A DNA stretch of 64,000 nt from Rhodospirillaceae bacterium (GCA_002718345.1 PBDA01000031.1:17260-81259), one strand, 5' to 3'; positions 48,728 through 64,000 are shown, numbered from the stretch's first letter. Notes: a model not told the origin generated them from the letters alone. A program made the numbers and translations.

Positions 48728-48750
48728 GTTCAAAAAAGATTAATTCTATT

Positions 48751-49998
48751 TTAGTTGAAGGCATCTCTGGCAACTAAGATTACTGAATCAATTAATTGAT
48801 TTAAGTCGTTGGAATTAATAACAAGCGCAGGCATAAGATAAATCACGTCCCGAAATGGTCTAACCCAAACTCCCTGAGAAATAAATCGTTCCCTTAATAC
48901 ATTAATGTTTGGACAACGCTCAAACTGCACCACGCCAACGGCGCCCTTTACACGAACATCAACTACCGCTGGAAAATCCTCACAAATAGTCAACCCGGCC
49001 TTTAACTGAGCCTCAATAGCCATTGCTTGAGATAAACGTGGCTCACGTTCAAATAGATCTAATGACGCATTAGCGGCTGCGCAACCTAGGGGATTACCAG
49101 AAAATGTTGGGCCATGCATTAATGCCTTATCATAATCGTCAGAAAGAAAGGCTTCGTAGATTTTCTCAGTAGCAACCGTAGCTGCTAAAGGCATTGTTCC
49201 GCCAGTAAGTGCTTTAGAAAGAGCAATTATATCAGGCTCAATAGTAGCCTCTTCGAATGCAAAAAGTGCTCCGGTTCGGCCAAAACCAGTAGCAATTTCA
49301 TCTAATATCAATAACAAACCATACCTTTTAGCTATATCGGCAATGGCGGCTAAAGTCTCTGGTTCATGGAATCGCATTCCTGCTGCAGCCTGAACTAATG
49401 GTTCTACCATTACACCTGCAAGTTCATTTGCATGGTTTGCAACAACACTTTCAAATGCAATCAGCTTTTCCTTATCACGTGGCAAGTCCACCATTATTTG
49501 ATCTGCTAAAACACCCTGAAAAAGGTGATGCATCCCATCTTCAGGATCACAAACAGACATGGCGCCAAAAGTGTCTCCATGATAACCATCTCGAAAACTC
49601 AAAAAACGAGTACGTCCCTTAATGCCTTTATTTGTCCAATATTGCAAAGCCATTTTCATGGCTATTTCGATCGATACAGATCCTGATTCCGAATAAAAAA
49701 CATGATTCAACTGGCCAGGAAGCAATTTTACCAACCGATCAGTAAGCCTAAGAACTGGTTCGTGAACCAATCCTCCTAACATGATGTGAGGCATTTGATT
49801 CAGTTGCTCTATAACAGCTGCTTTGATGTGAGGATGATTGTATCCATGACAAGCAGTCCACCAAGATCCAATACCATCGATAAGTGTTCGCCCATCTTTC
49901 AAGTGAATCCGTACTCCCTCCGTTCGATCTGCAATAATTGATCCAGGAGCTTTCTGCATCTGACGATAAGGCAACCATGGCTGCTTCCAACTCATCAA
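48751..49998 (-). CDS. bioA: Adenosylmethionine-8-amino-7-oxononanoate aminotransferase
   Basis: 415 aa, class III aminotransferase, with SWWTACHGYNHP, DEIATGFGRTG and the PLP-Lys context ALSKALTGG. Confidence 0.92.
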   Translation of the reverse strand: MMSWKQPWLPYRQMQKAPGSIIADRTEGVRIHLKDGRTLIDGIGSWWTACHGYNHPHIKAAVIEQLNQMPHIMLGGLVHEPVLRLTDRLVKLLPGQLNHVFYSESGSVSIEIAMKMALQYWTNKGIKGRTRFLSFRDGYHGDTFGAMSVCDPEDGMHHLFQGVLADQIMVDLPRDKEKLIAFESVVANHANELAGVMVEPLVQAAAGMRFHEPETLAAIADIAKRYGLLLILDEIATGFGRTGALFAFEEATIEPDIIALSKALTGGTMPLAATVATEKIYEAFLSDDYDKALMHGPTFSGNPLGCAAANASLDLFEREPRLSQAMAIEAQLKAGLTICEDFPAVVDVRVKGAVGVVQFERCPNINVLRERFISQGVWVRPFRDVIYLMPALVINSNDLNQLIDSVILVARDAFN

Positions 49999-50076
49999 AA
50001 AACCTTAATTTAAATTATTTAACATAAATATTAGCGAAGTCTGGATATACTCGCGCTTAAGAGCAATAACCTTACT

Positions 50077-51432
50077 ATGAAAATGAATCAGATCAATTGT
50101 TTTAAAGCATATGATATAAGAGGTCGAGTCCCTGAAGAACTTAATCCAGATATCGCATACAGTATAAGTCGGGCCTATGCTGAATTTATCAACGCGAGAA
50201 AAATAGCTTTATGTCGAGATGTACGCTTATCCAGCGAAATGCTTACTAATGCTATTTTTGATGGATTAACTGACTCAGGCGTAGATGTATTTGACCTAGG
50301 CGTAGGTGGAACAGAGTTTGTTTATTTTGGGACATTCCATAATAAACTAGATGGAGGAATAATGGTCACTGCCAGTCATAACCCTCCAAACTACAATGGA
50401 ATGAAGCTTGTCAGGGAACAATGCCGTCCTATAAGTGAAGATACTGGTCTACGAGATATTAAATTATTGGCTGAAGAAGCAAATTTCCCAAAACCTTTGA
50501 CATCTGGGATTCTGCAGAAAATTGATCTTATGTCAGAATATATTAGTCACTTACTAACCTATATTGATACTGATAATTTATTTTCCAAAAAAATTGTTGT
50601 TAACGCCGGCAATGGTGGAGCCGGCCCAGTGATTGATCAACTTGAAAAACACCTACCCTTTGAGTTCATAAAAATAAATCATGAACCAGACGGTACGTTT
50701 CCTAACGGGGTACCAAATCCAATGCTAAAGGAGAATCGTTTCTCTACGGGTAATTGCGTAAGACAATCCGGAGCAGATTTAGGAATTGCATGGGATGGTG
50801 ATTTTGATCGATGTTTTTTCTTTGATGAAAATGGGAGATTCATTGATGGGTATTATATTGTTGGTCTTCTTGCTGAAAGCTTTCTGACCAAGTCTCAAGA
50901 TGAGCGAATCGTTCATGATCCCAGACTAATATGGAATACATTAGATATAATCCAAAAAAACTACGGCATACCAATACAGAGTAAGTCAGGGCACGCATTC
51001 ATCAAACAAACTATGCGAGAAGAAGATGCAATCTATGGGGGAGAGATGAGTGCACACCATTACTTCCGTGATTTCTCTTATGCTGACAGCGGAATGATCC
51101 CTTGGCTTTTAGTGGTTGAAATAATGTGCCAAAGAAAAATGTCATTATCAGAGCTAGTTAATGAACGGATCAGTCTTTTCCCTGCTAGCGGAGAAATAAA
51201 TCGCGAGGTAGATAATGCTATAGAAATTCTCGAGAAAATAGAAAAAAATTATGCTGAAAAAGCCCTAAAGACAGAATACGTTGATGGCCTAAGTATGGAA
51301 TTTTCTAACTGGCGATTTAATGTTAGAGCTTCTAATACAGAGCCATTACTGCGCCTTAACGTCGAATCATCTAATGACATAACATTAATGGAAAAACAAA
51401 CTAACGAGCTGTTGGCTCTGATCAAAAGCTAG
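50077..51432 (+). CDS. Phosphomannomutase/phosphoglucomutase
   Basis: 451 aa with the active-site motif TASHNPPNYNG, metal loop WDGDFDR and sugar-binding motif GGEMSAHH. Confidence 0.9.
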   Translation: MKMNQINCFKAYDIRGRVPEELNPDIAYSISRAYAEFINARKIALCRDVRLSSEMLTNAIFDGLTDSGVDVFDLGVGGTEFVYFGTFHNKLDGGIMVTASHNPPNYNGMKLVREQCRPISEDTGLRDIKLLAEEANFPKPLTSGILQKIDLMSEYISHLLTYIDTDNLFSKKIVVNAGNGGAGPVIDQLEKHLPFEFIKINHEPDGTFPNGVPNPMLKENRFSTGNCVRQSGADLGIAWDGDFDRCFFFDENGRFIDGYYIVGLLAESFLTKSQDERIVHDPRLIWNTLDIIQKNYGIPIQSKSGHAFIKQTMREEDAIYGGEMSAHHYFRDFSYADSGMIPWLLVVEIMCQRKMSLSELVNERISLFPASGEINREVDNAIEILEKIEKNYAEKALKTEYVDGLSMEFSNWRFNVRASNTEPLLRLNVESSNDITLMEKQTNELLALIKS

Positions 51433-51481
51433 TACCCTCAGAAAATTAATTATCCTAAAAACTAAGCCCATACTAAGGGAG

Positions 51482-52648
51482 ATGGGATTGAGCAACGCAC
51501 GTTTAAAAGAGTTTGCGCAAGCCAAACTGGCTGATCTTGAAAAACTTGACTTACGTCGAGAACTGGCGGATACCGCACGTTTTTCTGGTGGAAAAATACA
51601 CCGAAGTGCTAAAAAGCTAATTTCTTTTTCATGTAATGACTACCTTGGACTCACTCATCACCCTGATGTAATCAAAGCAAGTCAGGAAGCCACCCAAACA
51701 TTTGGCACAGGATCCGGCGGATCCAGACTTGTCAGTGGGAACAATCCACTTAATAGTCAGCTCGAAGCATTACTTTCTAAAATCAAAGGAACTGAAGACG
51801 CGGTAATATTTGGTAGTGGCTACCTAGCTAATGTAGGAGTCATACCATCATTAGTGGGCCGTGATGACTTGATTTTGATAGATGAATTATCCCACTCATG
51901 TCTTTTTGCTGGTGCAAAGCTAGCAAATGCTAACATTATCCCTTTTAAACATCGTGATACAACTGAAGTAAGTAACCTGCTTTCTACCCATAGAAAATTA
52001 TTTCGACATTGCTTAGTTTTAACTGATGGTGTTTTCAGTATGGATGGCGATATTGCCCCCATTTTAGAATTACATGAGCTATGCGAAAAAAATGGGGCAT
52101 GGTTGATGACGGACGATGCCCATGGATTAGGCGTTATCCATGAAGGCCGAGGTTCCAGCATTGTTGATGGCTATGAGGTACCAGTACCATTGCAAGTTGG
52201 CACTCTTTCTAAGGCAGTGGGGGCCTATGGTGGCTATCTCTGTGCAAACAGAGAAATTACAGAACTGATGCGTAACCGAGCTAGAAGTCTGATGTACACA
52301 ACAGCCTTGCCACCTGGAACTCTGGCCGCAGCTATTGCAGCTCTAAAGATAATAGATACTAATATCGAATTAACAAATAGACCATTAGCATTTGCCCGTC
52401 TTTTTTCAGATTTTTTAAGCCTTGAGCCACCTGAAAGTCCAATTGTAGTTATTCAATTGGGGAATCCCGAACGCACAATCAAGGCATCTAAATGGTTAGA
52501 AGAGCAAGGCTACCTGGCAGTAGCTATCCGGCCTCCCACAGTACCAGAGGGCACATCTCGGTTACGTTGTACATTTTCAGCAACTCACACCCAAGATCAA
52601 GTATATGATTTCGCAAAAAAAGTACAGAAAATTCTAGAAAAAAAATGA
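51482..52648 (+). CDS. bioF: 8-amino-7-oxononanoate synthase
   Basis: 388 aa with NDYLGL, DDAHGLG and the PLP-Lys context GTLSKAVG. Confidence 0.9.
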   Translation: MGLSNARLKEFAQAKLADLEKLDLRRELADTARFSGGKIHRSAKKLISFSCNDYLGLTHHPDVIKASQEATQTFGTGSGGSRLVSGNNPLNSQLEALLSKIKGTEDAVIFGSGYLANVGVIPSLVGRDDLILIDELSHSCLFAGAKLANANIIPFKHRDTTEVSNLLSTHRKLFRHCLVLTDGVFSMDGDIAPILELHELCEKNGAWLMTDDAHGLGVIHEGRGSSIVDGYEVPVPLQVGTLSKAVGAYGGYLCANREITELMRNRARSLMYTTALPPGTLAAAIAALKIIDTNIELTNRPLAFARLFSDFLSLEPPESPIVVIQLGNPERTIKASKWLEEQGYLAVAIRPPTVPEGTSRLRCTFSATHTQDQVYDFAKKVQKILEKK

Positions 52649-53316
52649 AAAAATTTTTTTTGACATCTACAGGAACTGGCATTGGTAAAACATTTGTTGC
52701 ACAAGTTCTAATCCAGCAATTACTTAAAAAAAAATACAGTGTTAGAGCAATTAAACCAATTTTGACAGGTTTCAATAAAAGGAATGAGAGATCCAACGAT
52801 GCAGGTCTTCTTTTAAATTCAATGGGGCTAGATATATCTTCTGAAAATATATCAAGCATAAGTCCCTGGACATTTAAGCACCCACTTTCTCCTGATTTGG
52901 CAGCCTTTCGAGAAGGATCCAGAATTTCTTTGAGGGAATTAGTGGGATTCTGTAGGCAAAGCTACGACGCAGATGTGGTACTTATTGAAGGAATTGGTGG
53001 GATCATGGTTCCTCTAAATCAAAATAATACAGTACTTGACTGGATTATTAGTCTAAATGCACCAGTTCTATTAATCGTTGGTAGTTATCTAGGAACATTT
53101 AGCCATACGCTTACAGCTATAGGCATGTTGAAGGAAAAAGCGGTCAATATAGCTGGAATAATTATAAATGAGTCGACTAACCAACCAATCTCATCCGAAG
53201 AAACAGCAGAAGTTATCTCAAGATTCACCAAAAATATTCCTATTCAAGTACTCCCAAGATGCACTACCCCGGAACATGCCTCAGATCTATTACCTCTTAT
53301 AAATAGGTATCTGTAA
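52645..53316 (+). CDS. bioD: Dethiobiotin synthase
   Basis: 223 aa with the P-loop TGTGIGKT and EGIGGIMVPL. It overlaps bioF by 4 nt. Confidence 0.88.
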   Translation: MKKFFLTSTGTGIGKTFVAQVLIQQLLKKKYSVRAIKPILTGFNKRNERSNDAGLLLNSMGLDISSENISSISPWTFKHPLSPDLAAFREGSRISLRELVGFCRQSYDADVVLIEGIGGIMVPLNQNNTVLDWIISLNAPVLLIVGSYLGTFSHTLTAIGMLKEKAVNIAGIIINESTNQPISSEETAEVISRFTKNIPIQVLPRCTTPEHASDLLPLINRYL

Positions 53317-53344
53317 ATCAAAAAAACAATAATAAATTACGTGG

Positions 53345-54295
53345 TCAGTAAATCACTGCTGGATTAACCGTTGAACCTGTTGCACCGAGTATCTTCAAGG
53401 GTTGCATTACAAATGCAAATTCATATACATCTCGTTTTGCAAGTTCATCCAGTTTTAAGCGTTCAAGCAAATGAATCCCGTTCACAACTAACATAATTTG
53501 ATGCACAGGCAGAGAGAGCTCTGGATCAGGGTTTGGCTGTACCTCTACTGGCTGATTATCGGCGCCTACAATCATAGGATTTTTAGCCGCAAGCCACTCA
53601 GCAGCCTCTACGCCAATGCCTGGCCCGCCACGCAAATAACGAGGGACATCTAACTCCCAAAGGACACCCCACCCCGTGTGAATAATTACAGCATCTCCAG
53701 ATTCAATTGATAAATCATGCCTTTCAAGCTCAGCCTGGATATCTTCAACTGTAATTTCATAATCTTCAGCTAGCATATCAACGCCTTTCAACTCAGCGAT
53801 ATCTAATAATATTCCCCGAGTCATAAGCATAGGCACATTCTCTATCCCAAGGCTGGTAAACCCATTTCGAGTCATTGTTTCATCAACCCGAAAACAGTTA
53901 TAAAAAGTATTACCTATGCTCTGATGGCTAAAGCCATCAAGCTGTGTACCAATTTGTCCAAGTTCGGTAACAACGAGTTCTTCATTTGATCCTCTTCTAT
54001 TTGACAAAGGATTCATCGATGTAGGCTTTGGAAAAAGATCAAAATGTCTTGATCCAAGCGGGATAGAGCCATGCAATACATTACCTAACTCAACAATTTC
54101 GCCTTGGCGTATCAATTGCGCTGCGCGCATCACCGCTGCAGGTCCCATGAGATTAGCAGAGCCAAGTTGGTCGCCAGCACCCCATTGAGATGGACAACGA
54201 TCTACTTCGGCTGGTGGAGTCCAAGACTGCGCTTCTACCATCTTCCAAGTTAGTGTATTCAGCATAAAAAATATCATGATTGAAAAAAATCGCAT
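53345..54295 (-). CDS. Secreted cyclase-family (kynurenine formamidase-like fold) protein with a variant metal motif
   Basis: 316 aa with a signal peptide ending VEAQS. It has the cyclase-family layout (GTQLDGFSH, IIHTGW). The canonical HxGTHxDxPxH reads QIGTQLDGFSH here. Confidence 0.75.
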   Translation of the reverse strand: MRFFSIMIFFMLNTLTWKMVEAQSWTPPAEVDRCPSQWGAGDQLGSANLMGPAAVMRAAQLIRQGEIVELGNVLHGSIPLGSRHFDLFPKPTSMNPLSNRRGSNEELVVTELGQIGTQLDGFSHQSIGNTFYNCFRVDETMTRNGFTSLGIENVPMLMTRGILLDIAELKGVDMLAEDYEITVEDIQAELERHDLSIESGDAVIIHTGWGVLWELDVPRYLRGGPGIGVEAAEWLAAKNPMIVGADNQPVEVQPNPDPELSLPVHQIMLVVNGIHLLERLKLDELAKRDVYEFAFVMQPLKILGATGSTVNPAVIY

Positions 54296-54457: not shown

Positions 54458-55210
54458 CTACTGTTGGGCTACTCGATTGTTCTGGGTATTTCTGATTAGT
54501 GTTAAGTCAACTCGCCTTTCCATTGCCATCGCATCAACATCATTTTCTTCAGCCGAAGCGAAAGCTTCCCCATGCGCATTCATAATGACTCTGCTAGCAG
54601 GTACACCTCCTCTGACTAAAGCTTCCTTGACAGCAGCAACACGCTCCTCAGCAAGTTGCTTGTTATCCAACAATGAGCCACGAGCATCTGTATGGCCATC
54701 GATTCGAATCATAGTGTTATCAAGACGAGCTAATAACTCAGACAAACGAACAAGCCTGGACTCTGTTATATCAGGCAGTTTGCTTTCATTTGTTGTGAAA
54801 AGGACCTTGATATCAAGTGCATCAGTAACACTTGACTGCATTTGGCTATCATTTTCCTGTAACTCAGCCTCAAGCGAAGCAATGATAAATCCATTATCTT
54901 TGATTAAAGCATTTAGTGAGCGTACTTCTGCCTGCGCCTTTGTCCACTTGCGCTCATACTCAAATTGCGCAACATGCTTCATATCCAATATATCCCCAAC
55001 AAAAGCCCCCATTGCTGCGCCAAAAACCAACCCAACAGGACCTCCGGCAAGAGCTCCTATAGCTGCACCACTACCAATCCCAAGAGACTCGTGTTTTGAT
55101 TTTGATACTGCTTCAGAGGTCCAACCGCTAGATATGGACATGAGCAAAATTAAGAAGATGGTTATAGATCTAATCATGGCAAGGCTCCTTTGCTTCAATC
55201 GCCAGTTCAA
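54458..55210 (-). CDS. OmpA-family peptidoglycan-binding protein with an N-terminal Gly-zipper and coiled coil
   Basis: 250 aa. It has a signal peptide (probably from Met12, MIRSITIFLILLMSISSG) and the Gly-zipper GIGSGAAIGALAGGPVGLVFGAAMGAFVG. The OmpA_C motifs are RIDGHTDARGS, NKQLAEERVAAVKEAL and ERRVDL. Confidence 0.85.
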   Translation of the reverse strand: MNWRLKQRSLAMIRSITIFLILLMSISSGWTSEAVSKSKHESLGIGSGAAIGALAGGPVGLVFGAAMGAFVGDILDMKHVAQFEYERKWTKAQAEVRSLNALIKDNGFIIASLEAELQENDSQMQSSVTDALDIKVLFTTNESKLPDITESRLVRLSELLARLDNTMIRIDGHTDARGSLLDNKQLAEERVAAVKEALVRGGVPASRVIMNAHGEAFASAEENDVDAMAMERRVDLTLIRNTQNNRVAQQ

Positions 55211-55303: not shown

Positions 55304-56308
55304 TTATCCGCGTAACGAAGGTAACGCTACAAATGTGCCACCATTTCGCTGACATAACACTCTCATAAGTACCGCAAATCGGGCAGAAGACAGAAGTTCT
55401 CCATTGGTAACCTCATAATAGACTGGGAAAGCTACAGCATGTATTCGCACCCTCCGGGTACCATCTTCACCAGCCTGATTGCGTCTATCTACCTCTCGTA
55501 CAACGGCATTTATCGAGCCTGCAGAAAAATCGTCACTATAAACATAGAGGCTTATTTTTTTAGTGGGGTCATAGAAAGTTTCTATTGCCTCCAAAATACC
55601 TTCCCTAGGACTCGAATTTGAAAATGCTGACCAGTTTCTCAAACCATCAATGATGGCCTCTCTCGTCGACTCAGTATCAGGTATCCACTCATTACGATAA
55701 CTAGCAAACATATATTCGCCCATATCATTAAATACCTGTATTCCTTTCACCTGAGGATAGACTTGAAGGGTCTCAGTAACCTGTTGCTGAACCCGTGTCC
55801 ACGCGTAACGCTGCATACTTCCGGATGTATCAATAATAAAAATAATGTACTCGCTATCTACAGGTATTCCTCCAACCATATAATCGTCAGGGTCTGGCCT
55901 ATAGTCTGCGAGTAACCGTTGCATTTCCTCTGTTAAACGTTGTTTTGCCTGAGCTAAGCGTCCCTCCAATTCATTAGAAAACTCTGCATCACCTTGTGTA
56001 GCTAAAAATTCAGCCCGTATCCTTGTGAGCTCAGCCTGCAATTGCTCAATCTGGGTCTCAGACTGATCCACATTATCTATAGTAGCCAGTCTCTCCCTGC
56101 TAATGATTCTGGTCTCACCAAGAATATCCTCTAACTCCTGCTCATACTTGACTATGAGGTTCTCAAGCTCAACATGGGTCTCTTCCAACCTTATCGGCTC
56201 AAAGATTTTTGTAATCACGAGCAATAGGATTACTGCACCAAATCCACAACAGACAACATCTAAAAAAGAAAGGCTACCTGTATCAACATCTCGACGTTTT
56301 TTCCTCAT
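55304..56308 (-). CDS. TolR/ExbD-like TM anchor - coiled coil - von Willebrand A domain protein (paralog 2)
   Basis: I prefer Met20 of the track ORF as the start (MRKKRRDVDTGSLSFLDVVCCGFGAVILLLVI). It forms an ATGA overlap with the upstream stop and aligns with the paralog N-terminus. The vWA domain has the MIDAS motif DTSGS. Confidence 0.8.
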   Translation of the reverse strand: MRKKRRDVDTGSLSFLDVVCCGFGAVILLLVITKIFEPIRLEETHVELENLIVKYEQELEDILGETRIISRERLATIDNVDQSETQIEQLQAELTRIRAEFLATQGDAEFSNELEGRLAQAKQRLTEEMQRLLADYRPDPDDYMVGGIPVDSEYIIFIIDTSGSMQRYAWTRVQQQVTETLQVYPQVKGIQVFNDMGEYMFASYRNEWIPDTESTREAIIDGLRNWSAFSNSSPREGILEAIETFYDPTKKISLYVYSDDFSAGSINAVVREVDRRNQAGEDGTRRVRIHAVAFPVYYEVTNGELLSSARFAVLMRVLCQRNGGTFVALPSLRG

Positions 56309-57396
56309 GGCCAATCCTCTGAAGGAGCCATCATTGAACCTCCTGTGCTTAGCGCCAACCACCAATAAGATGGCGCTGATTGTGGATCACCTTCCATTGC
56401 ATAAAGAATTACATTTACCGGCACGTTAAAAGGAAGATCTCTGATAGCACGATTAAAATGTCCAAGACGTTCTCTTCCAGATACACCAGGATTTATGGGA
56501 TTTACCTCGCCCATAGTAGGCAGTCCATCAACAAGCAAATAAATATTGTCTGGCTTTGGGTCTAAAGGTCTCATGCTTGCAAAAGCGGCATGTAAACTTG
56601 TAGGTCCCTCAGGTACCGTTTCTCGCAAATTTTGTACAGCATCGTTGAGGAGACTCCCATCGTTAACTGTCTGCCATCGACCGTTACTGCCATCGATAAG
56701 ACTCCAAGCCTCATTATTGAATGCATAAATCTGTATTTGCGTGCCCGGTTCAATTTGGGTGGTCAACCAATCCACAGTATCAACTGCCTGGCGCCATTTA
56801 GGAGCTTGGAGTTTCTGTTCAACTGACATATTTCGGCGTCTAAGCACATTAACGATCGTGCGATCTAACATACTAGTTGAAGCATCTACCAAAATAACAA
56901 CACGATTTCCTCCCATTCTCAATCCTGTTAGATATTGACGATTTCCATCACCCGTAAAAGAACGAATGCGATCGCCAGCATCTTCCGGCGTGATGCTTGC
57001 AGCTGAGAGTCTCTGAGTCTCATTCTCCAGATCCTCCAACTCAGAGCGAAGCTGTTCAATTGCAGCTTCTCGTGCAGTTGAATCCGCCGTAAGAGTACTG
57101 AACTCCTCTTCAGTAGCCTGAATTTCAGTGACCACCTCTTCCCTTAAAGCACGCAAAACAGCTGATTCCTCGATAAGTGTTGCTAGATCGCTTTTGAGTT
57201 GCACAAGATTTTTACGCCCCGTCAAAACCTTCAGCTCTGCTCGATCTACCTCGCTTGCTAAATCATCGAGTACAGCCTCACGTCGTAAATCAATATTGGC
57301 ATTTATTATCATAAAAAATAGGATTACAGCACCAAAACCGCAGGTCATAGCATCAAGAAAAGATAATGAAAATACATTTAGAGATTTACGAGCCAA
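56305..57396 (-). CDS. TolR/ExbD-like TM anchor - coiled coil - von Willebrand A domain protein (paralog 1)
   Basis: 363 aa. The N-terminus is MARKSLNVFSLSFLDAMTCGFGAVILFFMI, followed by a heptad-rich Glu/Leu segment. The vWA domain has VVILVDASTSM (MIDAS DxSxS) and LLVDGLP. Confidence 0.8.
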   Translation of the reverse strand: MARKSLNVFSLSFLDAMTCGFGAVILFFMIINANIDLRREAVLDDLASEVDRAELKVLTGRKNLVQLKSDLATLIEESAVLRALREEVVTEIQATEEEFSTLTADSTAREAAIEQLRSELEDLENETQRLSAASITPEDAGDRIRSFTGDGNRQYLTGLRMGGNRVVILVDASTSMLDRTIVNVLRRRNMSVEQKLQAPKWRQAVDTVDWLTTQIEPGTQIQIYAFNNEAWSLIDGSNGRWQTVNDGSLLNDAVQNLRETVPEGPTSLHAAFASMRPLDPKPDNIYLLVDGLPTMGEVNPINPGVSGRERLGHFNRAIRDLPFNVPVNVILYAMEGDPQSAPSYWWLALSTGGSMMAPSEDWP

Positions 57397-58786
57397 TATT
57401 TCCCCCTACTGCGATGACATGCAATTCCTCCCCCGATGAGCCAATCCTAATTACATCCGCCGTATGTAAGTCAATCTGACTCGATATCTTTTTATTATTC
57501 ACATAAGCATTTGATCGATTCAAATCTATCAAGCGGAGCACCCCTTCCTTGCGAATAATTTCACAATAGGGCTGAGAAACAGTTGCTGGGTCTTCACCTA
57601 CTACTATGCTGTAAAAATTTTCATCATCTGCCTGGCTAATATAAATAGCGTCAGAATTAATAGCGTAGGCAATTCCACGGTATACCAAGTGTGTAGGCTG
57701 CAAAGGCTTAATAACATTATCACTATTACTTGAGGTTACTGACTTTTCTGACTGTGGAGTATCCAACTCAACCGCATCATCTCTCCAAGACAATCGCTTC
57801 AATAATTTCACTTGGTTATTAGTATGATTAATGTTTTTTAGACCCTTAAGCATACCCAGCGCGGCCTCACCGACATTCATTGATACCACATGCGTGTTAT
57901 CAATCTTTTCAAATTCGCTTGTAATGCCTGGTAACTGATGGAGACGATGAGATAATTGCACAACCAAACCAGTCTCCGGCTTTCGAAGTTGCGAACTAAG
58001 CTGTATCAAAGCCTTACAAAACCCATCTGCCACACCCAACAAATGTTCTCGTTGTATATTTACACAATACTCCTCTCCATTGTGCGAAATCTTTAATTCT
58101 GATTCTCCCTGTTCCTGAAGCTCAGCGAGCCAAACAGGCAAAAAATCGTAAACAAGTTGTTCAGTCTCTGCATGATGAAATGGATCAAAACGCGTCTGCA
58201 AAACAAAAATTTCCGCTACTCTAGCTGCCCACAAATCAAAAAGTGATGAAAGACCTACACTATCAAGCCCTTGCTCATGTTTTTCAAAAGCATCATCATT
58301 TTGCTCAATGACTGATGCTGAGACACGGTGCAAACTAGCGTCCAGATGAAGAATTTGATGGTTAGGATAGGGACGAGTACTTGCAGCAACACCGGCATTC
58401 GCCATTGCGCGCACTGGCATATTGCACTCCTGTGACATCCCCAATAAAAGACCCAATTGATCATGCGTGTAATGTGCTGGCGCCACTAACAATGCATCCA
58501 TATCACTTTGCCCGAATCGTTTCCATATTGAGTCAAGTTGGTTATAAGCTAATTCTGCTGAACTACCCACCGAATCGATACCCGCACTCCCTGATTCCAT
58601 GCTCAGGTCTTCCCAATAACGATTATTAGTCTGCCTTGGGTTAAGTCTTGCCTGAGAATATGCACCCAAACCAGTGACTACTGACCCATTAACTAATGCT
58701 GCATAACCAGGCTCTTTTGCTTTAACCCCATTCTGGTCAGCAATAACCAACTCAGCATCATTAATTTCAATGGCAAGAGTCTTCAC
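57386..58786 (-). CDS. Cytoplasmic protein: degenerate Hsp70/actin-like fold plus a C-terminal FHA-like domain
   Basis: 466 aa with no TM helix. AIEINDAELVIAD, LVAPAHYTHDQLGLLLGMSQECNMPVRAMANAGVAAS and ILHLDASLHRVSASV parallel the DnaK segments IDLGTTNS, ITVPAYF..QR...AGL.V.R.INEPTAAA and DLGGGTFDVS, but lack the Gly-rich phosphate loops. The C-terminus VSQPYCEIIRKEGVLRLIDLNRSNAYVNNKKIS...DVIRIG is FHA-like. Confidence 0.65.
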   Translation of the reverse strand: MKTLAIEINDAELVIADQNGVKAKEPGYAALVNGSVVTGLGAYSQARLNPRQTNNRYWEDLSMESGSAGIDSVGSSAELAYNQLDSIWKRFGQSDMDALLVAPAHYTHDQLGLLLGMSQECNMPVRAMANAGVAASTRPYPNHQILHLDASLHRVSASVIEQNDDAFEKHEQGLDSVGLSSLFDLWAARVAEIFVLQTRFDPFHHAETEQLVYDFLPVWLAELQEQGESELKISHNGEEYCVNIQREHLLGVADGFCKALIQLSSQLRKPETGLVVQLSHRLHQLPGITSEFEKIDNTHVVSMNVGEAALGMLKGLKNINHTNNQVKLLKRLSWRDDAVELDTPQSEKSVTSSNSDNVIKPLQPTHLVYRGIAYAINSDAIYISQADDENFYSIVVGEDPATVSQPYCEIIRKEGVLRLIDLNRSNAYVNNKKISSQIDLHTADVIRIGSSGEELHVIAVGGNIGS

Positions 58787-58795
58787 TTCTCCCCG

Positions 58796-59602
58796 CTATG
58801 CGCCCCCACGTGCCTGCATATGCCTTATAAGATTATGATCAATATAAGTTTGGGTATCGAATACTTGCCGTTCCTGTAGAAGCTGAAGTTGATGTACTAA
58901 AAACATAACTACAATCGAGATTAGCAGGGCGATAAAGGTACTATTGAAAGCCGTGCCAAGACTCTGAGTAACGCCCGCAATATCCCCGTCTACTGCACGA
59001 TGCGCCTGACTTAACGCTTCTCCAATTCCCCTAACGGTTCCAATAAAACCAACGGATGGAATTGCCCATGCAATGTAACGAATCATCGATAACTCAGACT
59101 CAAGGCGTTCACTTTCTGATTCACAAAGGGTATTTGCTACTGAAGATACATCCTGAACATTTCTAGTAGAACCAAAACGTTCAAGAGAAGACAAAAGCAC
59201 TCTCGGTAACAACATGCCTCGAATAGTATCTGGTAAAGCTTGGATAGTGCGCGCATATTCACGAGTATCTTCAGGAAGAATGCGTACCCCTTCCCTAATG
59301 GGCACCAATTCCTGTTGCAACAGCTGCCTCTCTCCTGTTGCCTTAAGCGCTTTAAATCCCATAATGGCAAATGCCCAAAGCATCAGAATAAAGCATGCTT
59401 CCTGTTCAAAATCTCGCACAAGAACATACAAGGAACGTTGAGGAGTGTAATTAGAATCTTCCTGTATACGTATAGTCTGTTCCGCTATGACAGCAGCAGC
59501 TTGTGGCCGAACTACTGTGACATAAACAGCATGAACAATTATTACAGCAATAATCAAAGCAAAAACCTGATACAAAAACTCATTCGGTAGATTTCGTTTC
59601 AT
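58796..59602 (-). CDS. MotA/TolQ/ExbB proton-channel family protein
   Basis: 268 aa with 3-4 TM helices. The channel-family core is AIPSVGFIGTVRGIGEAL...LGTAFNSTFIALLISIVVMF. Confidence 0.85.
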   Translation of the reverse strand: MKRNLPNEFLYQVFALIIAVIIVHAVYVTVVRPQAAAVIAEQTIRIQEDSNYTPQRSLYVLVRDFEQEACFILMLWAFAIMGFKALKATGERQLLQQELVPIREGVRILPEDTREYARTIQALPDTIRGMLLPRVLLSSLERFGSTRNVQDVSSVANTLCESESERLESELSMIRYIAWAIPSVGFIGTVRGIGEALSQAHRAVDGDIAGVTQSLGTAFNSTFIALLISIVVMFLVHQLQLLQERQVFDTQTYIDHNLIRHMQARGGA

Positions 59603-59889: not shown

Positions 59890-62343
59890 TCATTCTAAAT
59901 TTCGAGCTATCCGAAAGCCGATTTTTTCATCGCCCTGCAAACTATAGTTCCTGGAAGCCAGTCGAAGATCACTTACTGTTGCGCTTCTCCAGCTAGCACC
60001 CCTAACAACATGAAAACGTCCGCTTTCTGGTCCTAAAGGATCTTCTTGAATTGCATCAGTTGCAACCCGCGAGACCCCATAGTAATCCTGTACCCATTCG
60101 GAAACATTACCTCCCAAATCAAAGAAACCTATAGCATTAGCTTCAAAACCCCCTGATGGCGATGAGACCGCAAAACCATCGTTATAGGTAACTAGCGTTG
60201 TAGGCAATATACTCGCAGCTGAAACATCAGCATAGTTTCCGGAACGATCTGGTGGTGGCAAAGACTGGCCCCAAGGATAAATAAGAGGCTCTTCCTGTTC
60301 TGCAAAACGGGCAGCCCATGCCCACTCTGCTTCTGTTGGAAGCCTATAACCATTCCTTAAAGGTCTAGCAAATTCCCAACGTCCATCCACTTGCTCATAA
60401 ACTGGCTGCAGCCCATCCTCAATACTAAGCCAGTTCATAAATTGCACTACATCTTCCCAAGCAATCCGTACAACAGGCTGATCTGGCTCATTAAGAGAGG
60501 CCCCAGAATAGCTCCCAGAATCATGAACAGACTGGAAAGCTTGAAATTCTCCATTACTGACCTCTTTCACTCCAAGGTAAAATGCTTTACTAATTTTAAC
60601 TGCCCGTAACGCTTCATTAGATCTGCGTCCCTGTTCTCTGCGCGAAGAACCCATCATAAATTCTCCTGGCAATACTAATCTGAGCTCTTGACCTAAATGT
60701 GTCTGTACTACTCTTGAATAACCTGAACCTGTCTCTGTATTTAATTCCTCTAAGCTTGCTTCCCATTTCTGAGGAAAACCTGGTCTCGGAGTGATACTCA
60801 TCGACCGCGATGTGAATCCTTCAAGTTGAACCGTTATCTCATGACTAACAGTATTAAGCTGAAGTTCTGCTGGGGTTGTACCCTGTAACTCTCCATCTAC
60901 AAATATCTGAGCTGCAGATGGATTACTCAATACCTCAACTGTTCCAAACTGAGGCACCAGATTAACCTCAACAATTTGTTGGCTATCCGCATCAACTACT
61001 AACTCCCGAGTCTCGGATTCATATCCAGGTCGAGTGAGGCCTAACATGTGTGTTTGACCAGGCCTAATACGGAGCATTAGAGGCGTTTGGCCCTGAAATA
61101 TACCGCCTACACTCACGGCAGCTCCTGGCGGATTACTAACAAGCTCAACCTGACCATCTGCCTCTATAAGCCTGACCTCTGGTATTACGATAGGTTCATC
61201 TGCTAAGACCACAAGTGAATCCCGCCATGGATTATGACCATCTAAGTGTAACTCCACGTTTCTTTCACCCGCTCCTAACTCTAGAACAAGAGGCGTTGCT
61301 CCAAACAAAACCCCGTCCACTAAAACCTCAGCCCCTGCTGGAAAGCTACTTATGCTTACTGGCGCCCAGCTAGGCGTAAGCGAGGTAGATAATGTTTGGC
61401 GTTCATGCCCCCCTGTTACATCAAACTCTTGTACTTGCGACAGATAACGCTCCGCTACATACTCAATACGATGCATACCAGGCCTAATCTCAACATCTAC
61501 TAATGGTGTTGTTCCAATAGATACCCCATCCACAAATACATCAATTGGCATATCAGGCTCTGCAAAAAAAGAAATAAGACCGGGCAACTTAGTAAATTCT
61601 AGTTGTATTGTTTGCGCTGGTAACTGCCCAACCTCAATTACTTCTTCTAAGGGGTAATACCCTATCAACTCAGCTGAAATTCTATGAGTTCCAGATCTGA
61701 GAAGATAACGACCTCCCATTTGAAATTTGAACAATGTACGCGGTAAAGATAGCTCCTCAGGAACCGGGTCTATGACAAACTCAACCGATTTTGCAGTGAA
61801 TGCAAACCAAGCAAATATTGCAAGAATGCCGAATGTGCTTCCAATAATCAGGCTTGAACGCTTGGGACGAAACCTTTCACCAAAGTTTTTGTTATTTATT
61901 TTCGGGCGAAATGAGATCGGCGCAATCTCTATTGCCTCTACTTTACCTGGTTCTTTAGCAATCTCTTCAAGGTCTTGAGTTTCTCCTTCAAATCCCTTCA
62001 TGTTTGCTGAAGTACGCACTGTTAAAAGATCGTCAAAAAGCGAACAGACTGCTGAAAAACTTCCCAGAGAAATCACCACTCCATCTTTCAACGACTCAGA
62101 CCCAGCAATCAATTGGTCATTAATTTTCAATCCACGTGTATTCTTACCTGATTGGATAAAGAATGTTCCATCAAGAACTCCAATCTGAAACGAGCCCCTA
62201 ATCTCATTTAGACAGATTTCACAATCATCTGTCTCTCCAATATGAACAGGAAGCTGTTCTTTTCCAAACCAACGGTTCTGACCGTTAGCAGAAATCCTTA
62301 GGGTCCAATCTTCTGGCTCTGTCATCAAATTGGCTCCATGCAC
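59890..62343 (-). CDS. FHA-like domain - TM - five PEGA repeats - FGE/SUMF1-like domain protein
   Basis: 817 aa. The N-terminal FHA-like segment is PVHIGETDDCEICL...FFIQ...LKINDQLI...GVVISLG and the TM helix is IIGSTFGILAIFAWFAFTA. The PEGA repeats include SFPAGAEVLVDGVLFGATPL and SNPPGAAVSVGGIFQGQTPL. The C-terminal FGE fold has LPGEFMMGS, EVSNGEF, GNVSEWVQD, VVRGASW and GFRIARN. Met7 (62325) is an alternative start, giving a TGATG overlap. Confidence 0.85.
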   Translation of the reverse strand: MHGANLMTEPEDWTLRISANGQNRWFGKEQLPVHIGETDDCEICLNEIRGSFQIGVLDGTFFIQSGKNTRGLKINDQLIAGSESLKDGVVISLGSFSAVCSLFDDLLTVRTSANMKGFEGETQDLEEIAKEPGKVEAIEIAPISFRPKINNKNFGERFRPKRSSLIIGSTFGILAIFAWFAFTAKSVEFVIDPVPEELSLPRTLFKFQMGGRYLLRSGTHRISAELIGYYPLEEVIEVGQLPAQTIQLEFTKLPGLISFFAEPDMPIDVFVDGVSIGTTPLVDVEIRPGMHRIEYVAERYLSQVQEFDVTGGHERQTLSTSLTPSWAPVSISSFPAGAEVLVDGVLFGATPLVLELGAGERNVELHLDGHNPWRDSLVVLADEPIVIPEVRLIEADGQVELVSNPPGAAVSVGGIFQGQTPLMLRIRPGQTHMLGLTRPGYESETRELVVDADSQQIVEVNLVPQFGTVEVLSNPSAAQIFVDGELQGTTPAELQLNTVSHEITVQLEGFTSRSMSITPRPGFPQKWEASLEELNTETGSGYSRVVQTHLGQELRLVLPGEFMMGSSRREQGRRSNEALRAVKISKAFYLGVKEVSNGEFQAFQSVHDSGSYSGASLNEPDQPVVRIAWEDVVQFMNWLSIEDGLQPVYEQVDGRWEFARPLRNGYRLPTEAEWAWAARFAEQEEPLIYPWGQSLPPPDRSGNYADVSAASILPTTLVTYNDGFAVSSPSGGFEANAIGFFDLGGNVSEWVQDYYGVSRVATDAIQEDPLGPESGRFHVVRGASWRSATVSDLRLASRNYSLQGDEKIGFRIARNLE

Positions 62344-63842
62344 TGAACTGTTATTGGTTCCAAATCACTGCCGGGTAGAACTATTAGCTCTTGTCTAACA
62401 TCTACATAACCGACCCTGCTACCTATCACAGTGTATGTGCCTGGCTTTAACTCCAACTGTTTAAAGAGGAATTTACCCATTCTACCAACACGATACACAG
62501 TCACTTCAGTCAGTTCATCAGAATAGATTTCCACTGGAATTGGCGTAGATGCTATCTGCACTAATCTACTGAGATCGCTAGTTTGTGACTCCAGTAACGG
62601 ACCTGGCTGTTGAATAGAATAAGCTTCAGTAAGCAGGGATTGTGCATCAGTCAAAGTTTGATCATTGAATAACAAATTTGGGTTTTCGATCAAATTTACA
62701 AGCTTTGCATCCAGGTCGTATCTAACGCGAGCTCTCAAAAGCCCTTGCTGAGCAAATTCTAGAGTATCATCGGTTTCAAGTGCTTCAGTGTAGAGCTGAA
62801 CTGCCATATCCCAAAGTTCTCGTGATTCAAAAGCAATAGCACGCGCCTCTGCCAACGCAATCTCATCAAGTCGCTGGCCTTGCTGGGCTTGTATCAAAGA
62901 GTTCTCTGCTTCTGGAGAATCTGGTCTGATTGCAAGTGCTTCTAGAAAAAAATTATTGGCATCACTGTACTCTTCCTCTGCCAAAGCTCTTAAACCTAGA
63001 GACATTAATGCATCAAATTCCCTATCAATGATGATAGCTTTTACTCCTTCCAATGCGGTCCTAGCCGGGTGCCAAAGCTCATCTATTACTAGGGCTTGCC
63101 TGTACCTTTCTGCCGCAGCTTCATAGTCTGCTGCATTTTCGTTGTCTTCCCCAGCCTTAACCAAAGAAAGTACCTCAGGCAGATTTTGAGCCCTTGCAAG
63201 ACCAACCTTAGCTATTGCATTTTCCGGCTCAATACTCAAAACCAATTGGAATTGCTCAAGTGCTAAATCTGAATTCCCCGCATCCAAAGCATTTGCTGCA
63301 GCAGATAGGGCGGCCTCAATAAGATTGATAGAACGTGTGAGCAAAATCTCGCCAGCATCTATTGCCTGAATGTAGGCTGGAACAGCATCATAAAATGCGT
63401 TGCTCAGATAAGCGTCATCACCTGCCTTTGCTAAAGCTTCATATTGTTCAAAATCCTCACCCCCCCAATCAGCTACCGACTGATCATCCAATTGTCCTTG
63501 CTGTGTGATGAGCTGTGCTAATAAAGCCTCAGCTTCTAAACGAAAAGCTTCTAGTTCATCAGGCGTGAAAACAGGTGTTTCTGGTTCAGCGACATCAGAT
63601 ACATCATCCAAAATAGCTTCAACCGGTTGAAGAGGTTCCTCTTCCACCCACCCGGGCAAAAAGAAAAAGACAATTACAGCAATGACTATCAATGCCCCAA
63701 GCCAAAGACTTGATAAGGGAACAGTTACTCCTTGCTTAGAATTTTCTGCAGAAGCAACAGACTTGAGGGATCCATGCAAACCGGGGTTAACCGGAACAAT
63801 GGCCTCATCTTTTCCGGAATCTTGCACTTTTTTATCTACCAC
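62325..63842 (-). CDS. Single-pass membrane protein with an acidic linker, TPR-like repeats and a C-terminal PEGA-like beta domain
   Basis: 505 aa with a GTG start and GAAGG 8 nt upstream. The TM helix is LWLGALIVIAVIVFFFL. Repeated Ala/Leu/Glu-rich TPR-like helices follow. The C-terminus is LKPGTYTVIGSRVGYVDVRQELIV. Confidence 0.75.
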   Translation of the reverse strand: MVDKKVQDSGKDEAIVPVNPGLHGSLKSVASAENSKQGVTVPLSSLWLGALIVIAVIVFFFLPGWVEEEPLQPVEAILDDVSDVAEPETPVFTPDELEAFRLEAEALLAQLITQQGQLDDQSVADWGGEDFEQYEALAKAGDDAYLSNAFYDAVPAYIQAIDAGEILLTRSINLIEAALSAAANALDAGNSDLALEQFQLVLSIEPENAIAKVGLARAQNLPEVLSLVKAGEDNENAADYEAAAERYRQALVIDELWHPARTALEGVKAIIIDREFDALMSLGLRALAEEEYSDANNFFLEALAIRPDSPEAENSLIQAQQGQRLDEIALAEARAIAFESRELWDMAVQLYTEALETDDTLEFAQQGLLRARVRYDLDAKLVNLIENPNLLFNDQTLTDAQSLLTEAYSIQQPGPLLESQTSDLSRLVQIASTPIPVEIYSDELTEVTVYRVGRMGKFLFKQLELKPGTYTVIGSRVGYVDVRQELIVLPGSDLEPITVQCMEPI

Positions 63843-63933: not shown

Positions 63934-64000
63934 CTATTCTTCAATACCGCTATCTTCCTCGGGCAAATCGCTCTCGGTTAGCTCAGGTTCTACTTCATCT
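63934..64000 (-). CDS. 3' end of an unidentified gene (acidic C-terminal tail)
   Basis: My own translation of the minus strand gives ...DEVEPELTESDLPEEDSGIEE followed by TAG at 63936..63934. Only 21 codons are visible, so the product cannot be called. Confidence 0.3.
   Translation of the reverse strand, partial: DEVEPELTESDLPEEDSGIEE

Follow-up and report, generated by a model that had tools for sequence, protein, structure and literature searches.

Two adjacent genes in a 64,000-nucleotide stretch of DNA from a Rhodospirillaceae bacterium (GCA_002718345.1, PBDA01000031.1:17260-81259; hereafter, the window, with positions counted from its first nucleotide) encode paralogous proteins, vWA-A and vWA-B, each of which combines a basic N-terminal tail, a transmembrane (TM) helix bearing an Asp residue, a long coiled coil and a vWA domain. 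The explanation that we favor, with moderate confidence, is that these two proteins pair up as a heterodimer that makes up the Asp-bearing axle at the center of a 5:2 proton motor. The outer ring of this motor would be a pentamer of a MotA/TolQ-like protein encoded two genes upstream, with vWA-A and vWA-B as the two non-identical central subunits. The pairing of anchored vWA genes is confirmed as an observation, far beyond chance, and the Asp is present in 100% of the 117 distinct A-type and 91 distinct B-type N-termini over which conservation of the anchor was counted. The features in question are the following.

56305..57396, minus strand: vWA-A gene, 363 amino acids; basic tail, Asp-bearing TM helix, coiled coil, linker and vWA domain
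57298..57375, minus strand: vWA-A TM ("transpore") helix, residues 8-33; motif FSLSFLD15AMTCGFGAVIL, Asp15 codon at 57352-57354
57004..57297, minus strand: vWA-A coiled-coil stalk, residues 34-131
56905..57003, minus strand: vWA-A flexible linker, residues 132-164; conserved motif RQYLTG
56308..56904, minus strand: vWA-A vWA domain, residues 165-363; D171-x-S173-x-S175 (56872-56886), T266 and D290
55304..56308, minus strand: vWA-B gene, 334 amino acids, ATG at 56308; architecture as in vWA-A
56204..56281, minus strand: vWA-B TM helix, residues ~10-35; motif SLSFLD17VVCCGFGAVILLLV, Asp17 codon at 56258-56260
55907..56203, minus strand: vWA-B coiled-coil stalk, residues ~36-134; aligns with the vWA-A stalk
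55307..55852, minus strand: vWA-B vWA domain, residues ~153-334; metal ion-dependent adhesion site (MIDAS) D160-T-S-G-S164 at 55817-55831
58796..59602, minus strand: MotA/TolQ/ExbB-family channel protein, 268 amino acids; PF01618 E=1.1e-14; predicted pentameric partner

Architecture of the vWA pair and its predicted channel partner

Both open reading frames (ORFs) and their paralogy had been proposed in an initial annotation made from the nucleotide sequence alone, and this part of it stands. The two ORFs are present on the minus strand as described; the N-terminal sequences that it gave match the translations exactly; the Escherichia coli TolR and ExbD sequences that it quoted proved to be correct on checking; and the MotA/ExbB, Hsp70-like, vWA-A and vWA-B genes follow each other in the order that it described (PF01618 E=1e-14 for the first of these). 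vWA-A and vWA-B are similar over their whole length in a BLASTP comparison (E=1e-9), and a family-to-family hhalign comparison aligns 317 columns with a probability of 99.75% (E=3e-27, 21% identity). The start codon of vWA-A is TTG, with AGGGGGA directly before it, and public data hold a 363-amino acid protein that is 100% identical to vWA-A. For vWA-B, the ATG at 56308 is the best reading of the start, preferred over the upstream TTG of the longest ORF because the orthologs begin at the equivalent basic tail. This ATG and the TGA of vWA-A overlap by 4 nucleotides (ATGA, 56305-56308), which bears out the coupling of the two genes proposed earlier, and the same 4-nucleotide overlap is found again in related loci.

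The anchor motif common to the two paralogs, RRxx[NE]xFSLSFLDx[MI]xCGFGA[VI]IL, includes RR at positions -12/-11 relative to the Asp. Within it, G+5, G+7 and L+11 are at least 99% conserved and C+4 is 96-100% conserved; in the B-type anchors, D, C+4, G+5, F+6 and G+7 are all 100% conserved, and K..EP after the TM-helix motif is specific to B. Positions 0, +4, +7, +8 and +11 share one helical face; there is no His among the common residues and no SHLS motif in these N-termini. A TM helix with a protonatable Asp following a basic cytoplasmic tail, a feature of ExbD and TolR, is thus found in both paralogs. On the N-terminal side of the helix, the net charge over 8 residues is +2.5 in A and +1.9 in B; on the C-terminal side, over 15 residues, it is -1.0 and -2.1, respectively (127 A and 111 B orthologs). 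By the positive-inside rule, these flanking charges predict an N-in/C-out topology for both proteins, with the stalk and the vWA head in the periplasm, and the Asp would then lie in the cytoplasm-proximal part of the helix, about as far from the basic N-terminal cluster as in TolR.

An AlphaFold2 (AF2) model of vWA-A, constructed from a 41-sequence alignment with a mean predicted local distance difference test score (pLDDT) of 86.6, consists of one uninterrupted helix spanning residues 8-131, that is, the TM helix and the stalk together (124 residues), a linker (residues 132-164) with no secondary structure and pLDDT of 43-52, and a compact alpha/beta domain (residues 165-363) with pLDDT >90. 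The family-averaged hydrophobicity of residues 35-132 in both A and B peaks at a period of 3.5, a result that was matched by 0 of 2000 shuffles, and a family profile matches the coiled coils of SMC proteins and myosin. A coiled coil of about 100 residues (~15 nm) is well supported, the heptad-rich segment noted in the initial annotation being borne out by both the AF2 helix and the periodicity.

The C-terminal domain of vWA-A adopts a vWA fold in the model: the Foldseek matches in the PDB, among those listed, are of the vWA/MIDAS type, with E-values from 1e-6 to 1e-4 (best, 7.5e-7), a probability of 1.00 and TM-score (target) up to 0.66, and include CLCA1, anthrax toxin receptor, ITIH1/4, BatB and integrin I domains. 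In direct Pfam searches, both proteins remain below the gathering threshold (A, 20.0 bits for VWA_2, threshold 27; B, 22.5 bits for VWA, threshold 23.8, E=1.5e-4); a PF13519 match is precomputed for some orthologs. The MIDAS motifs recognized previously (DASTS, residues 171-175 of vWA-A, and DTSGS, residues 160-164 of vWA-B) hold up. In vWA-A, S173 and D290 are invariant, and D171, S175 and T266 are conserved in 91%, 95% and 82% of the sequences, respectively; in 108 vWA-B orthologs, iDTSgSM, the Ser-rich loop fS.SsP and YV..D are conserved. The residues of the DxSxS...T...D signature in vWA-A, and an equivalent set in vWA-B, make up putative metal-binding sites. The vWA-A protein ends in DWP (56308-56316), with W362 and P363 invariant in the 41-sequence alignment, and this C-terminus may be a docking motif; vWA-B has a conserved C-terminal region of its own.

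The channel protein is the product of the most conserved gene in the cluster, with 54-93% identity in Pseudomonadota-type loci and 35-42% in Verrucomicrobiota. Its residues were mapped by alignment with E. coli TolQ and ExbB and by comparison of the family profile with the PDB, in which TolQ was the only match (E=0.011); the match to the NCBI tolQ model TIGR02796 (4.6e-7) is below the cut-off. P182, T189 and T222 of the channel align with P138, T145 and T178 of TolQ and are invariant in 35 diverse orthologs. The E. coli TolAQR structure shows a polar ring, made up of T145 and T178, beside the essential Asp23 of TolR, and a kink in the pore helix caused by P138 (PMC12215075). On its cytoplasmic side, the channel protein also has an acidic motif, D.EQE (residues 64-68), that is strongly conserved.

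The three genes travel together. We fetched 134 loci from Pseudomonadota, Acidobacteriota, Desulfobacterota, Myxococcota and Spirochaetota, and spot-checked 18 further motif-selected loci, mostly from Verrucomicrobiota and other gammaproteobacteria. The transcription order in the window, with all genes on the minus strand, is TPR protein, formylglycine-generating enzyme (FGE)-fold protein, MotA-like channel, a protein joining an Hsp70-type nucleotide-binding domain (NBD) to an FHA domain (Hsp70-FHA), vWA-A, vWA-B and OmpA-like protein. The same order, with or without the last gene, recurs in about 90 of the 134 loci, the remaining ones being mostly truncated by contig ends, and the 18 spot-checked loci contain the core MotA-(Hsp70-FHA)-vWA-A-vWA-B. 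Barring contig ends and one order-swapped locus, vWA-A and vWA-B are adjacent wherever both are present. In some loci (L029, L030, L118, L127, L148 and L149), the Hsp70-FHA gene is missing and the MotA-like gene lies directly before vWA-A; in others (L028, L061-L064, L066 and L068, from metagenome-assembled genomes of soil and freshwater Gammaproteobacteria), a more divergent MotA-like gene follows vWA-B. The MotA-like gene, vWA-A and vWA-B are the invariant core of the cluster, and the persistence of their linkage through rearrangement and loss of the Hsp70-FHA gene counts in favor of the axle role proposed for the pair. Searches for an ExbD/TolR homolog came up empty in the window, the 134 loci (phmmer; hidden Markov model (HMM) search at E<=1, 8635 ORFs) and 119 more, so that the search covered, besides the window, 253 loci. 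The other proteins of the cluster, including the OmpA-like protein, have no acidic residue in a TM helix.

We know of no MotA/ExbB-family channel that works without an Asp-bearing partner (MotAB, ExbBD, TolQR, PomAB, ZorAB and AglRQS all have one). We assign the axle role to the vWA pair because this channel family needs such a partner and the cluster never encodes a canonical one, and because the sole TM Asp residues are those of vWA-A and vWA-B, which are invariant across phyla, as is the pore ring that they would face. The mechanism that we infer, in its membrane topology, insertion into the pentamer, 5:1:1 stoichiometry, rotation, partners and regulation, is as follows. vWA-A and vWA-B would insert N-in/C-out, with their N-terminal helices in the pore of the pentamer, where Asp15 and Asp17, respectively, would face the ring of Thr189 and Thr222; protonation and deprotonation of the Asp residues, driven by the proton motive force, would turn the ring relative to the pair. 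The helices would run unbroken into a heterodimeric coiled coil of ~100 residues (~15 nm); beyond it, the flexible linker would lead to two periplasmic vWA heads with MIDAS sites. Binding of these heads to a partner, probably in a metal-dependent manner, would let ion flow yield force or rotation in the envelope; the candidate ligands are the GldK-like FGE-fold/PEGA protein, the TPR protein, a lipoprotein encoded upstream in related loci and the OmpA-like protein. The Hsp70-FHA protein and, in a subset of the clusters, a Ser/Thr kinase would probably gate assembly or activity via recognition of phospho-threonine.

An arrangement of this kind has been proposed independently, from synteny and AlphaFold 3 modeling, for a "TPH-vWA" class exemplified by an Idiomarina locus (PMC12204202; Mol Biol Evol, June 2025). 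As described in the text of that report, the class consists of TM-tethered vWA proteins that are "predominantly found in heterologous pairs" beside a tolQ-like gene, with no tolR, exbD or motB; AlphaFold 3 sets a conserved TM Asp within a Thr ring; there is no SHLS motif; and the class is found mainly in Proteobacteria and Verrucomicrobia. The locus analyzed here agrees with this description in the following features: a heterologous pair of TM-vWA proteins, synteny with a tolQ-like gene, no tolR, exbD or motB nearby, a conserved TM Asp, no SHLS motif, a Thr ring (T189 and T222, both invariant) and the taxonomic range. Taken with the genomic context, this independent literature makes the reading that the pair works like TolR/ExbD well supported. 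The earlier suggestion of a motor tipped with vWA domains is, as an idea, not new, given the 2025 proposal.

Composition and spread of the gene cluster

Four more genes of the cluster are present in the window.

57386..58786, minus strand: Hsp70-NBD-FHA protein, 466 amino acids; NBD at residues 1-340, FHA at ~365-460; cytoplasmic
59890..62343, minus strand: FGE-fold protein, 817 amino acids; weak FHA/YscD-like N-terminus, one TM helix (~164-185), four PEGA domains and an FGE-sulfatase fold
62325..63842, minus strand: TPR protein, 505 amino acids, one TM helix; weak TPR match in Pfam; first cluster gene in the window
54458..55210, minus strand: OmpA-like peptidoglycan-binding protein; signal peptide and glycine zipper; PF00691 1.7e-13, Gly-zipper 1.6e-5

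The Hsp70-FHA gene lies between the channel gene and the vWA pair and overlaps the start of vWA-A by 11 nucleotides. The 466-amino acid protein as a whole has no match in Pfam; its AF2 model, built with database homologs (pLDDT 88.4), retrieves Hsp70 NBDs in Foldseek (E ~1e-16, TM-score up to 0.70), such that the label "Hsp70/actin-like" attached to this gene earlier is correct. The FHA domain is identified by PF00498 (E=4.5e-7, fragment) and by a PDB match to FhaA (4e-8). The canonical phosphate-loop sequences of Hsp70 are GIDLGTTNS and DLGGGT; those of the NBD encoded here are unusual (AIEINDAEL and HLDASLHR), with D10 and D149 invariant.

The 817-amino acid protein contains PEGA (Pfam, 1e-39) and FGE-sulfatase (PF03781, 6e-40) domains, preceded by an N-terminal region of 100 residues with a weak FHA/YscD resemblance (E=0.04-0.07). 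The best NCBIfam match of the FGE-fold domain is GldK/PorK (TIGR03525, 7.8e-27, below the cut-off). Catalysis by human FGE requires a pair of Cys residues; the last 270 residues of the protein encoded here contain no Cys, and therefore this domain is not a catalytic formylglycine-generating enzyme and appears to be a case of the fold without catalysis, as in GldK/PorK. The TPR gene is syntenic in most of the complete loci. The OmpA-like gene adjoins vWA-B on the downstream side in about 40% of the related loci; the best match of its product is PdsO (TIGR03789, 8e-31, below the cut-off), and the protein contains a coiled-coil stretch. PdsO is the OmpA-like partner in a proteobacterial sortase system, the substrate of which is likewise a vWA protein.

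Related loci extend further upstream than the window does. In 97 loci, the TPR gene is preceded, on the same strand and at a median distance of 88 base pairs, by a gene for a lipoprotein of ~400-430 amino acids with a lipobox (e.g., VFVGC) and no Pfam family (e.g., L002:42-1337 and L041:314-1501); therefore, the start of the cluster is probably outside the window, beyond position 64000. In 29 loci, a Ser/Thr kinase (Pkinase, E=1e-31) is encoded directly upstream of the TPR gene (e.g., L004:667-1533, L008:734-1570, L020:471-1349 and L122:567-2126), which fits the two FHA-type domains of the cluster; L002, the closest relative of the window, has no kinase gene. On the other side, the neighbors at 46877-54295 are of the housekeeping type, that is, acetolactate synthase large subunit-, bioA-, bioF-, bioD- and phosphomannomutase-like, as judged from their translations only. 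Conservation of a 316-amino acid secreted protein (53345-54295) beside the cluster is confined to the closest relatives (L001-L005).

vWA-A belongs to a large and old family: a word-indexed search retrieved >4351 proteins; among clusters at 50% identity, 1281 have E<=1e-3 and 287 have E<=1e-30; and the anchor motif is found in >599 stretches of species-representative genomes. A look-up of 10 cluster representatives returned uncultured sources only. The carriers include Gammaproteobacteria (Woeseiaceae, Steroidobacteraceae, Halieaceae, Arenicella and Cellvibrionaceae), Acidobacteriota, Desulfobacterota, Myxococcota, Spirochaetota and Verrucomicrobiota (Opitutales and Puniceicoccaceae). Halieaceae bacterium WMMBA4 (L178) is a candidate for a cultured carrier.

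Much of this gene complement appears to extend what is in print. The text and legends of the report on the TPH-vWA class make no mention of a coiled-coil stalk, an Hsp70-NBD-FHA protein, a protein combining a possible FHA domain with PEGA and FGE-fold domains, or an upstream lipoprotein or kinase, and its text gives a TPR gene for the other (TolA-like) vWA family only, whereas here a TPR gene is part of the cluster (PMC12204202). Judged against this text, the wider context of FHA, kinase and GldK-like components seems to be undescribed and is added by the present analysis. The cluster is not described in a survey of conflict systems from the Aravind laboratory either (PMC7159879).

Sequence comparisons and alternative explanations

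Several results weigh against the assignment of the vWA pair to a TolR-like role, and most of them come from direct sequence comparison. Full-length vWA-A and vWA-B had no match to the ExbD/TolR family PF02472 at E<=0.1, and their N-termini (57-58 amino acids) yielded nothing against Pfam ExbD and MotB_plug at E<=10, with fragments of E. coli TolR and ExbD of equal length scoring 1.4e-11 in Pfam as a positive control; neither full proteins nor N-termini gave anything in an NCBIfam scan for ExbD, TolR and MotB_plug. A family profile of 45 anchors, run against all PDB sequences, retrieved no ExbD, TolR, MotB, PomB or ZorB chain and produced only chance matches to NDUFB4 (CGFG). The hhalign comparison of the anchors with TolR/ExbD, the profile for which was shallow given that the database search returned Enterobacterales only, was not significant (P=0.099; 5-9 columns, FLDxM on LLDVL), nor was the column-shuffle control for it (p ~0.09) or the comparison with the N-terminus of E. 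coli MotB (P=0.051, probability 1%); and in an unfiltered TolR/ExbD N-terminal HMM, the anchors reached at most 5.2 bits.

The channel, too, departs from its best-known relatives. It has neither Pro187 of TolQ nor the TM Glu of ExbB/TolQ, and hydropathy suggests an additional N-terminal hydrophobic helix (residues 13-31) ahead of the segment aligned with TM1 of TolQ, which would give a MotA-like topology with four TM helices. Furthermore, an ExbD/TolR gene located elsewhere in the carrier genomes could in principle serve this channel. The locus appears to belong to the TPH-vWA class, as that class is described in the text of the source report, by its matching features and taxonomic range and not by alignment with the Idiomarina exemplar (PMC12204202); and our literature search found no experimental work on any member of the class.

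The profile match to the ExbD/TolR family on which the initial annotation had staked its claim was, accordingly, not found at significance in Pfam, the PDB, hhalign or the HMM search. Its broader claim, that the two proteins are TolR/ExbD-type partners of the MotA channel, retains the support of context, motif and literature and loses that of sequence membership in ExbD/TolR. Homology of the anchors to this family is not demonstrated; what the data offer is an analogy of design and context, and a helix of 25 residues may be too short to carry a homology signal.

A related question is whether the anchors are highly diverged ExbD/TolR/MotB helices by descent, with the periplasmic domain replaced. 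This would be a refinement of the axle assignment rather than an addition to it, and we regard it as possible but doubtful. The design is the same: the tail is basic, the Asp follows the basic cluster by ~11-14 residues and the partner is of the MotA/ExbB family. Asp falls on Asp in the top local alignment from hhalign with TolR/ExbD as well as in that with MotB, neither of them significant, and D-x-M-T is common with MotB. Against this stands the uniform outcome of the statistical tests, none of which is significant (Pfam, the PDB profile, hhalign with P=0.05-0.10, the shuffle with ~0.09 and the HMM), and a helix of ~25 residues holds too little signal to decide. The small alpha/beta periplasmic domain of ExbD/TolR is not present, its place being taken by the 124-residue helix, the linker and the vWA domain.

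Among explanations that dispense with the axle altogether, the one that survives best, and is nevertheless unlikely, casts vWA-A and vWA-B as a bitopic, heterodimeric coiled-coil scaffold beside the channel, similar to PilN/PilO, with a cytoplasmic partner of the actin/Hsp70 fold, as in PilM-PilN-PilO. The face formed by the Asp and GxGA would then pack helices (A against B, or against the TM helices of the TPR or FGE-fold proteins), and the channel would work alone or with an unlinked TolR/ExbD. The architecture does parallel that of PilN/PilO, the Hsp70-NBD-FHA gene is directly upstream and overlaps the start of vWA-A, small-residue motifs such as CGFGA typically accompany tight packing of TM helices, and there is no significant similarity to ExbD/TolR/MotB. 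However, packing alone can hardly explain an invariant Asp in the single-pass helix of both paralogs in at least six phyla; the Hsp70-FHA protein is dispensable in some lineages, whereas MotA, A and B never separate; and the channel family needs an Asp-bearing partner, for which the 253 loci contain no other gene.

A role in cytoplasmic phospho-signaling, in which a vWA-FHA pair would act as ArnA (FHA) and ArnB (vWA) do in Sulfolobus and the TM helix would be a mere tether, is considerably less probable still. The family profiles do produce weak matches to vWA domains of the ArnB type (5a8j and 8s05_A) and FHA domains of the ArnA type (5a8i and 8s05_C), and the cluster encodes two FHA-type domains and, in some loci, a kinase; yet, the charges predict N-in/C-out for both paralogs in more than 100 orthologs each, and PEGA, the FGE fold, TPR following a TM helix and the OmpA-like domain are of periplasmic types. 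Finally, a Zorya-like anti-phage defense system built on a MotA/ExbB-type channel has next to no claim and was rejected, since PADLOC gave only domain-level echoes of ZorA and ZorB (channel to ZorA, E=5.7e-4; OmpA-like protein to ZorB, E=5e-8, via the OmpA domain) and matched the vWA proteins to no defense model beyond coiled-coil noise, no ZorC- or ZorD-like gene, nuclease or helicase accompanies the channel, the neighbors are housekeeping genes (bioF, bioD, bioA and ilvB-like), the gene order is conserved across phyla, unlike that of a mobile defense island, and a tblastn search of vWA-B against 72,556 plasmids returned no match.

Relation to known ion-driven motors

The known 5:2 ion motors, MotAB, ExbBD, TolQR, GldLM and ZorAB, drive flagella, the uptake of nutrients, maintenance of the outer membrane, gliding and secretion, and defense against phages. 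The assembly proposed here, with vWA-A and vWA-B as the axle, shares with TolQ-TolR and ExbB-ExbD a channel of the MotA/ExbB family with the equivalents of Pro138, Thr145 and Thr178, and a partner with a basic tail and an Asp near the cytoplasmic side. It differs from TolQR and ExbBD in having two different partners with no PF02472 similarity and no ExbD/TolR periplasmic domain and, if the axle indeed carries the output domain, in having no separate transducer of the TolA/TonB type; as compared with TolQ specifically, the channel has what seems to be a fourth TM helix and lacks the two residues named above. In MotA-MotB and PomA-PomB, the B subunit has an Asp-bearing helix inside the pentamer of the A subunit. 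The D-x-M-T motif in common with MotB (ADFMT), the possible four TM helices of the channel and the presence of an OmpA-type peptidoglycan binder all recall these stator systems; in contrast, there is no match to MotB_plug (PF13677), the OmpA domain resides in a separate, secreted protein, unlike in MotB, and no flagellar genes are found here.

A precedent for a heteromeric axle is provided by AglR-AglQ/AglS of Myxococcus xanthus, in which a TolQ-like channel is combined with two different small, TolR-like, Asp-bearing partners. The Agl-Glt machinery also involves CglB, an adhesin of the vWA type (PMC9946355); there, the vWA domain resides in an outer-membrane lipoprotein, whereas here it would be part of the axle. 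GldLM/PorLM, together with GldK/PorK, offer no more than an analogy, with a dimeric inner subunit and a long periplasmic stalk that reaches an envelope complex containing a protein of the FGE-sulfatase fold. However, GldL falls outside PF01618, the periplasmic part of GldM consists of Ig-like domains and not of a coiled coil and a vWA domain, and GldK/PorK is an outer-membrane lipoprotein, whereas the FGE-fold protein encoded here is tied to the inner membrane by its TM helix and carries PEGA domains. BatA and BatB are, like the proteins described here, bacterial vWA proteins with an N-terminal membrane anchor, and BatB (3ibs) is among the fold matches listed; they lack the Asp motif, the coiled coil and a MotA partner, and are encoded in MoxR/DUF58 operons.

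On a wider and distinctly more tentative view, which we would not put above a working possibility, the MotA-like/vWA-A/vWA-B triad would be the engine of a larger, undescribed trans-envelope machine. In this machine, which would resemble the GldLM-GldK motor of type IX secretion by convergence, the heterodimeric axle would rotate, and its MIDAS heads would engage the TPR protein, the GldK-like FGE-fold/PEGA protein, the lipoprotein and a wall anchor of the OmpA-like type; the Ser/Thr kinase, the two FHA domains and the putative ATPase domain of the Hsp70 type would make up a cytoplasmic on/off switch. We would expect such a machine to have a wide distribution among the Gammaproteobacteria, Verrucomicrobiota, Acidobacteriota and Desulfobacterota of marine waters and sediments. 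If it exists, it would be the first known case of a 5:2 motor whose axle is intrinsically asymmetric, under phospho-regulation and its own output device.

The principle of a vWA-tipped motor is already in print as a computational prediction, and the value of the present locus is that of a well-delimited member with a fuller list of parts. A motor class of this kind would add to the known ones a heterodimeric axle with a long stalk of its own, tipped with metal-dependent, adhesion-type heads, such that no separate TolA/TonB-like transducer would be needed, and the asymmetry of the axle would amount to a natural experiment on the alternation of two Asp residues during rotation. Uncultured, abundant lineages of marine and sediment habitats commonly carry the cluster, in which the linked FHA, kinase and Hsp70-type components point to a form of regulation that has not been described for other 5:2 motors.

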